Source of the DNA: Escherichia coli
GTDB taxonomy: Bacteria; Pseudomonadota; Gammaproteobacteria; Enterobacterales; Enterobacteriaceae
Length of the DNA: 64,000 nucleotides
NCBI RefSeq assembly: GCF_044324875.1
Contig: NZ_CP172185.1
Strand: one strand, 5' to 3'
Made by a program: the position numbers and the translations under genes. Below, in pieces: positions 32,516 through 33,036 of this stretch. The first letter of the stretch is position 1. Each line of letters begins with the position of its first letter. Under the pieces are notes generated by a model, which worked only from the letters and a program-made list of their open reading frames with translations, did not search any database and had not been told where the DNA came from.

Positions 32516-33036
32516 TGCCGGATACGGCCTATGGTTCGGCACAGACTTGTAGGTCTGATAAGACGCGTCAAGCGTCGCATCAGGCATTGTGCGCCAACTG
32601 CCGGATGCGGCGTGAACGCCTTATCCGGCCTACGGTTCGGCACAGACCTGTAGGCATGATAAGACGCGTCAGCGTCGCATCAGGCATTGTGCGCCAACTG
32701 CCGGATGCGGCGTGAACGCCTTATCCGGCCTACGGTTCGGCACAGACCTGTAGGCATGATAAGACGCGTCAGCGTCGCATCAGGCATTGTGCGCCAACTG
32801 CCGGATGCGGCGTGAACGCCTTATCCGGCCTACGGTTCGGCACAGACATGTAGGCATGATAAGACGCGTCAAGCGTCGCATCTGGCATTGTGCGCCAACT
32901 GCCGGATGTGGCGTGAACGCCTTATCCGGCCTACGGTTCGGCACAGACTTGTAGGCATGATAAGACGCGTCAAGCGTCGCATCAGGCATTGTGCGCCAAC
33001 TGCCGGATGCGGCGTAAACGCCTTATCCGGCCTACG
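32516..33036. repeat. Tandem BIME/REP array, about five copies of a roughly 100-bp unit
   Basis: Repeating caggcattgtgcgccaactgccggatgcggcgtgaacgccttatccggcctacggttcggcacagac(c/t)tgtaggcatgataagacgcgtcagcgtcgcat at about 100-bp period between yjjW and yjjV. Confidence 0.9.

Follow-up and report, generated by a model that had tools for sequence, protein, structure and literature searches.

A five-unit BIME-2 array between the convergent genes yjjW and yjjV of Escherichia coli, an allele of K-12 REP352

What is the repetitive DNA that separates the convergent genes yjjW and yjjV in Escherichia coli, and does it do anything for its neighbors? We addressed this question in a 64,000-nucleotide stretch of contig NZ_CP172185.1 (assembly GCF_044324875.1; hereafter, the window), in which an earlier note had described five tandem BIME/REP units of about 100 bp. 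The REP/BIME family was first described some 40 years ago. The identity of the array is already known: it belongs to this old family, occupies a locus that is catalogued in K-12, and is in its commonest allelic state. It is a BIME-2 element and the local allele of K-12 REP352. On balance, we favor a two-way 3′-end hairpin block combined with a gyrase site as its likeliest role.

REPs are 30-40 nt long and form imperfect palindromes; a GTAG lies 5′ of the stem foot, and the stem is interrupted by an internal mismatch (PMC3333891). They are combined into two classes of element that matter here. BIME-1 elements are single-copy and consist of a z1 and a y REP joined by a long L linker that often contains an IHF site (PMC3333891), whereas BIME-2 elements consist of y and z2 REPs in multiple tandem copies with short linkers (Ton-Hoang et al., PMC3333891). 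The number of BIME-2 units per locus varies among strains, and the units are alike within a locus, whereas the linkers differ between loci (PMC3333891).

Location and Boundaries of the Array

The array is real, as judged from two programs and from reading of the sequence. Tandem Repeats Finder reported a single array at 32525-33037 (period 101, 5.1 copies, 96 per cent matches, 0 per cent indels, score 949), and an independent repeat finder recovered five copies spaced by 100, 100, 101, and 101 bp. A 101-bp period repeated five times at 96 per cent identity makes a chance origin impossible. The outermost REP boundaries are at 32517 and 33035, and the interval given in the earlier note, 32516-33036, thus differs by only 1 bp at each end. 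The four full units are 98-100 per cent identical to each other in pairwise comparisons.

The names of the flanking genes are those of the RefSeq features under the matching E. coli regions, and their coordinates come from the list of open reading frames. yjjW (31650-32513, + strand) encodes a glycyl-radical enzyme activase of 287 amino acids with the C-terminus ...IFPALYL*, and its TGA stop codon (32511-32513, + strand) is situated 3 nt ahead of the array. yjjV (33032-33811, - strand) encodes a TatD-family metal-dependent hydrolase of 259 amino acids (...LFNVP*). The two reading frames face each other, in agreement with the claim that the array lies between convergent genes. The array also reaches the yjjV stop codon (33032-33034, - strand), as had been noted: the reverse complement of these positions (cta, that is, TAG) lies inside the last REP, in the GGCCTAC tail of a Y REP. 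The stop codon is all that the array shares with yjjV. The array is otherwise extragenic and located at the 3′ ends of both genes, where it fills the gap between the convergent stop codons; these 518 bp are REP material throughout. In K-12, intragenic sigma-54 binding sites in yjjV and yjjW were reported in a sigma-54 ChIP study (IS56, IS57; PMC4591121).

Elsewhere in the window, a threonine operon leader (Rfam RF00506, 121 bits) is found at 775-894 on the - strand. The window therefore includes the point at which the E. coli map conventionally begins, and it runs in the orientation opposite to that of K-12.

Anatomy of the Array

The whole array (32517-33035) is 519 bp long and contains eleven REPs, ten of them intact: one truncated Y REP, five Z2 REPs, and five Y REPs. 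Following the truncated Y REP, there are five units of ~100-101 bp, each composed of an inverted Z2 REP (37-38 nt), a 13-nt linker, a Y REP (34 nt), and a 16-nt linker. The Z2 REPs, with GTAG on the + strand, are located at 32549-32586, 32650-32686, 32750-32786, 32850-32887, and 32951-32988. The Y REPs, with GTAG on the - strand, alternate with them at 32600-32633, 32700-32733, 32800-32833, 32901-32934, and 33002-33035. These positions were assigned by reading the sequence. Each of the ten intact REPs has a GTAGG or CCTAC, and in the fifth Y REP, the GTAG (reverse complement of 33032-33035) contains the TAG of yjjV. The head-to-head linker of 13 nt is TTGTGCGCCAACT, and the tail-to-tail linker of 16 nt is GGTTCGGCACAGACNT. 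The truncated REP at the yjjW end, a mini-REP of 16 nt (GCCGGATACGGCCTAT; 32517-32532, - strand), corresponds to a Y REP minus ~18 central nucleotides. Two units (32600-32699 and 32700-32799) are identical, and the remaining ones can be told apart by SNPs and a 1-nt indel.

Two other interpretations of the repeats were considered and rejected. The array is not a CRISPR array: between the palindromes, only the same two linkers recur in every unit. Open reading frames within the array (for example, 32515-32715, 66 amino acids) are not regarded as coding, because a unit of 100-101 bp is not a multiple of three, so that the frame shifts from unit to unit, and because a palindromic repeat yields open reading frames on both strands.

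The anatomy agrees with that of BIME-2 in several respects. Five Y REPs are interleaved with five inverted Z2 REPs, the units are repeated in tandem (5.1 copies of 101 bp) and joined by short linkers (13 and 16 nt), and the REPs are palindromes of 34 and 37-38 nt that have the GTAG and the stem mismatch of the family. The earlier note had also remarked that arrays of this kind can bind IHF. This part of the note does not hold for the array, as IHF belongs to BIME-1, and the IHF consensus WATCAANNNNTTR is absent from the array on either strand. That the array could nonetheless be a BIME-1 or RIB-type element that recruits IHF has next to no probability in our judgment. Such a reading would draw on that general remark and on the Y REPs, which are common to both BIME classes, and BIME-1/RIB elements do share with the array a position at the 3′ ends of transcription units. 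Their Y REP is paired with a Z1 REP across a long L linker with an IHF site, and they are single-copy, whereas the array has Z2 partners (36 of 38 positions identical to the Z2 REP of the K-12 array REP325), short linkers, and tandem copies.

Unit Number among E. coli Genomes

The earlier note had predicted that the array would vary in copy number. We joined both flanks of the array, searched them against the 5,426 complete E. coli genomes, and took the length of the gap from the spacing of the two flanks; the counts are based on two evenly spaced samples of 59 records each (118 genomes). As predicted, the alleles differ in length and range from a lone REP to six units. The commonest class, to which the window belongs, has a gap of ~518 bp and five units (40 of the 118 genomes), followed by one unit (gap of ~115 bp; 28 genomes) and two units (~216-234 bp; 24 genomes). 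Four units (~418 bp) are found in 14 genomes, mainly of K-12-derived and other laboratory strains. A lone Y REP (~33 bp) is present in 6 genomes, three units (~317 bp) in 5, and six units (~620 bp) in 1. In one representative per length class that was read unit by unit, the architecture is constant throughout. Strain-variable copy number with units that resemble each other within the locus is again what is reported for BIME-2.

Within the sampled clonal groups, unit number is constant, with two units in every O157:H7 genome of the samples and four in K-12-derived laboratory strains. It thus varies from lineage to lineage and shows no instability over short times. The mechanism of change is probably unequal recombination, slippage between units, or the action of the REP-associated transposase TnpA-REP. 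The locus thus represents a clean length polymorphism with steps of ~101 bp that is stable within the sampled clones and could serve as a typing marker. Its alleles also form a natural series in which the effect of REP number on 3′-end processing could be tested.

A tandem array of similar units raises the concern that its length was altered during assembly, by collapse or expansion of units. Two of the units are identical and could not be counted by very short reads alone. Yet the complete genome NZ_AP022261.1, an independent assembly, carries the same array, identical unit by unit except for one SNP, and the five-unit length therefore is not an assembly artifact. Moreover, the ~518-bp gap recurs in 40 of the 118 sampled complete genomes, the other units differ by SNPs and a 1-nt indel, and the whole array is only 519 bp long. 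We consider an assembly origin of the five-unit length extremely improbable.

Array Ends, Insertions, and Relatives outside E. coli

Mini-REPs of 16 nt (GCCGGATACGGCCTAT and GCCGGATGCTGCCTAC), which are Y REPs with ~18 central bases deleted, occur at both ends of the array. Most E. coli alleles have a mini-REP at the yjjW end of the array. The EDL933-type haplotype has one at the yjjV end, and those at the right end of the array were seen at loci L004, L005, L007, and L008. The same type of deletion at both array ends suggests a recurrent mechanism.

Among the natural alleles, that of strain L1PEag1 (NZ_CP145513.1) carries an IS1397 element (locus L011, 1532-3000) that splits a lone Y REP in its loop. 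The insertion point is between GCGTAAAC and AAACGCC, with AAAC on both sides. IS1397 is described as inserting specifically into the REPs of BIMEs (Clement et al. 1999, in the account cited in PMC3333891), and the yjjW-yjjV locus of L1PEag1 conforms to this description.

To find relatives of the locus, we scanned genome contigs for the junction between the yjjW stop codon and the REP with the pattern TATNTNTGANATGCCGGAT, whose 16 specified bases should occur by chance ~140 times in 298 Gb. The pattern was found at 120 loci at least, nearly all of them chance matches, and the only real ones among the matches listed are from Escherichia albertii (L012), Escherichia sp. E1V33 (L110), and Citrobacter sp. 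On2M (L127). At the yjjW-yjjV site, E. albertii has one unit and Escherichia sp. E1V33 has two. In Citrobacter sp. On2M, one palindrome of a different sequence begins at the same distance of 3 nt from the yjjW stop codon (L127, ~4480-4560, reverse strand); it consists of GCCGGATGCGATGC, AAAA, and GCGTCACATCCGG and is followed by an A-rich run. A hairpin at the convergent junction therefore predates the Escherichia BIME. Hence, the palindrome of the site is old, and its expansion took place within Escherichia.

Secondary Structure and Signals

Both strands of the array fold far below their shuffled counterparts (z = -12.75 and -11.58), and none of 100 dinucleotide shuffles folds as well. Single REPs form hairpins of about -21 (Y) and -15 (Z2) kcal/mol on either strand, all beyond shuffles. 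For example, the first Y REP (32600-32633) has predicted RNA hairpins of -21.3 and -20.9 kcal/mol on the two strands (z of about -4.7), and the second Z2 REP (32650-32686) has hairpins of -15.3 and -14.8 kcal/mol. The Y fold, (((((((..((((....))))..))))))), includes a 2 × 2 internal stem mismatch. Adjacent Y and Z2 REPs can also pair into one hairpin of ~90 nt, in either register, with energies of -48 to -54 kcal/mol as RNA and -28 kcal/mol as DNA; DNA parameters give the same folds as RNA parameters. The mini-REP at 32517-32532 folds no better than shuffles (-7.2 kcal/mol, z of -1.45). The minimum-free-energy fold of the whole array, a giant long-range hairpin, was not accepted for the transcript, since folding during transcription favors local hairpins of single REPs or doublets.

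Covariation adds little to these predictions. RNAalifold detected zero compensatory pairs in 14 Y+Z2 units, in an alignment in which MAFFT had misaligned one arm. When Y and Z2 REPs were aligned separately, one compensatory pair per REP type was found, which is too little to count as evidence of covariation. Covariation support is minimal because the REPs are nearly invariant.

No terminator-like site, that is, a hairpin followed by a U tract, was detected in 32514-33031 on either strand, and no further terminator-like structure was found for yjjW or yjjV. This leaves the array as the sole structured element at the two 3′ ends.

Matches to the naRNA4 Family

The array has five matches to the Rfam family naRNA4 (RF02564), all on the - strand, which is the sense strand of yjjV. 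They cover model positions 1-77 and score 68.3-79.1 bits, compared to a gathering score of 59.5; on the + strand, the matches are below the gathering score (49.8-57.6 bits). Each naRNA4-like unit comprises a Y hairpin, a linker, and a Z2 hairpin, and the five are situated at 32552-32630, 32653-32730, 32753-32830, 32853-32931, and 32954-33032.

These matches invite the interpretation that the array is a cluster of naRNA4-type genes, whose processed RNAs would bind HU, bridge cruciform DNA, and condense the nucleoid in trans. Five full-length matches above the gathering score on one strand are in line with this interpretation, as is the published model for naRNA4 and REP325, the K-12 array from which it derives (PMC4550694). 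Yet RF02564 also matches an unrelated BIME at window 40669-40862, which indicates that the model detects Y/Z2 units generally and provides no evidence for a specific gene. Furthermore, nucleoid volume was unchanged by REP325 deletion or naRNA overexpression, and neither REP-REP contacts nor a stable HU-DNA-naRNA4 complex were observed (bioRxiv 10.64898/2026.03.23.713779), in a study that shares an author (Adhya) with the original report (PMC4550694). Finally, no sigma-70-like promoter was found in the array or adjoining it. We therefore regard a role as a naRNA4 gene cluster as very unlikely. The gap is best annotated as a BIME-2/REP array, rather than as small open reading frames or a cluster of sRNA genes, and the naRNA4 matches as generic.

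The second BIME in the window (40664-40865) is also a BIME-2, with two Z2/Y units, other linkers, and two above-threshold naRNA4 matches. It shows compensatory changes in both REP stems and is located ~140 bp from three tRNA genes at 41002-41321.

A Likely Role at Two 3′ Ends

If the array behaves like other members of its family, the yjjW (+) and yjjU-yjjV (-) transcripts that enter it would fold into REP hairpins. These hairpins would attenuate read-through into the opposing gene, partly via Rho, and would block 3′ exonucleases, and the array would serve as a 3′-end element that both genes share and that works in two directions. At the DNA level, the Y REPs would be probable sites of gyrase cleavage. 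By this analogy, the array most likely would act as a two-way terminator and decay block for yjjW and yjjV.

Published work on related loci provides the basis for the analogy. REP325 has local effects: it stabilizes mRNA and works as a terminator or attenuator that depends partly on Rho. For REPs between convergent genes, an association with higher expression of the two genes is reported, which is what two-way terminators and decay blocks would be expected to produce (bioRxiv 10.64898/2026.03.23.713779). REP effects are context-dependent, and terminal REPs have no genome-wide effect on mRNA half-life (bioRxiv 10.64898/2026.03.23.713779). Neither REP352 nor yjjV is listed in the supplements of that study. 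Within BIME-2, a subset of elements shows enriched gyrase cleavage, mostly at y REPs, and the loci named are other BIME-2 loci (PMC6379681); in the examined supplements of this Topo-Seq study, there is no entry for yjjV, yjjW, or REP352. At the yjjW-yjjV locus itself, natural alleles cover the range between a lone REP and six units, so that unit number is probably not under strong selection.

The main rival to this proposal leaves the BIME-2 identity unchanged and differs only in the functional claim. It holds that the array is selfish or neutral DNA, that is, a REPIN that the REP-associated transposase or recombination has multiplied in place and that is tolerated without a selected role for the host. 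Such an origin would account for the fact that alleles of all lengths, between a lone REP and six units, persist in E. coli, for the one or two units or single palindrome in related species, and for the truncated mini-REPs at the array ends, which resemble decay. Models of amplification by TnpA-REP exist (PMC3333891), and the lack of a genome-wide effect of terminal REPs on half-life cited above also fits. On the other hand, all Escherichia genomes examined, and one Citrobacter, have a palindrome at the site, and neither yjjW nor yjjV has another terminator-like structure. In addition, deletion of REP325, the closest studied array, shifts the expression of its neighbors 3- to 10-fold (bioRxiv 10.64898/2026.03.23.713779). 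We consider the selfish or neutral explanation less likely than a role at the 3′ ends. Apart from its correct annotation, the array is of little consequence.

The yjjV Stop Codon and the Meaning of Unit Number

The REP at the yjjV end touches the coding sequence, and its hairpin stem starts at the base right after the UAG of yjjV. REPs located no more than 15 nt from a stop codon stall ribosomes, according to the description of Liang et al. (2015) in PMC12306157. For yjjV, a REP is present within 15 nt downstream of the stop codon, which lies directly before a stable stem, and REP-dependent ribosome stalling may, by analogy, apply to the termination of YjjV. It probably does not apply to YjjW, because the nearest REP is the unstable mini-REP: this is the only REP within 15 nt of the yjjW stop codon, and the first stable hairpin stem begins ~41 nt downstream.

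The 3′ end of yjjV exists in two haplotypes. In the first (window 33032-33060 on the - strand, K-12, and Escherichia sp. E1V33), the protein ends in ...FNVP*, and the last Y REP provides the TAG as part of its conserved GTAG. In the second (EDL933, loci L005 and L007, and E. albertii), it ends in ...F(N/S)V(R/S)G*, and the stop codon is ~18 nt upstream of the REP. The two haplotypes differ by an indel of ~17-18 nt beside TCGTRGG direct repeats. A REP supplies the yjjV stop codon in about half of the alleles read, which makes this locus a small example of a repeat that shapes the end of a coding sequence.

Could the number of units then be a heritable dial for the expression of yjjV and yjjW? 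If so, YjjV output would be set by REP-induced ribosome stalling and tmRNA rescue, the unit count, from a lone REP up to six, would tune the termination and protection of the convergent yjjW and yjjU-yjjV transcripts, and truncation of the first REP would have been selected because it relieves yjjW of the same effect. We find this doubtful, and give it little credence.

Comparison with Known Systems

The closest known counterpart of the array is the K-12 element at yjjV/yjjW, which is listed in EcoCyc as REP352a-h, overlaps yjjV, and lies within 15 nt of a stop codon (bioRxiv 10.1101/2024.07.17.603846); the RefSeq feature table of NC_000913.3 contains no REP features. K-12 REP352 and the array in the window agree in locus, flanking genes, REP types, linkers, and the truncated Y REP beside yjjW, and in both of them, the last Y REP contains the yjjV stop codon. 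The flanking sequences (1000 bp) are 95.5 per cent identical. The two alleles differ in length, with four units (419-bp gap) in K-12 and five (518 bp) in the window, and in homogeneity: K-12 REP352 mixes ACAAAC, GACAAG, and TTATGCGCCGACT unit variants, whereas the units in the window are more uniform.

K-12 REP325 (yjdM-yjdN), the source of naRNA4, is a similar array at another locus. Like the array in the window, it consists of Y and inverted Z2 REPs (period 100, 5.8 copies), and the units of both match the same covariance model (RF02564) over its full length. Its REPs are nearly the same (33 of 34 positions identical for Y and 36 of 38 for Z2), whereas its linkers are unrelated to those of the window (7 of 17 and 6 of 13 identical). 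REP325 is situated between two tandem genes of one operon and includes no stop codon, in contrast to the position of the window array between convergent genes.

Two further systems share parts of this design. Intrinsic terminators resemble the array in their G+C-rich hairpins, which here are located at the 3′ ends of both genes, but the array has no U tract on either strand. In REPINs, two REPs form a doublet hairpin that is mobilized by RAYT, and neighboring Y and Z2 REPs of the window likewise form a long hairpin. The REPIN concept refers to dispersed doublets, whereas between yjjW and yjjV, the doublet has been amplified in tandem.
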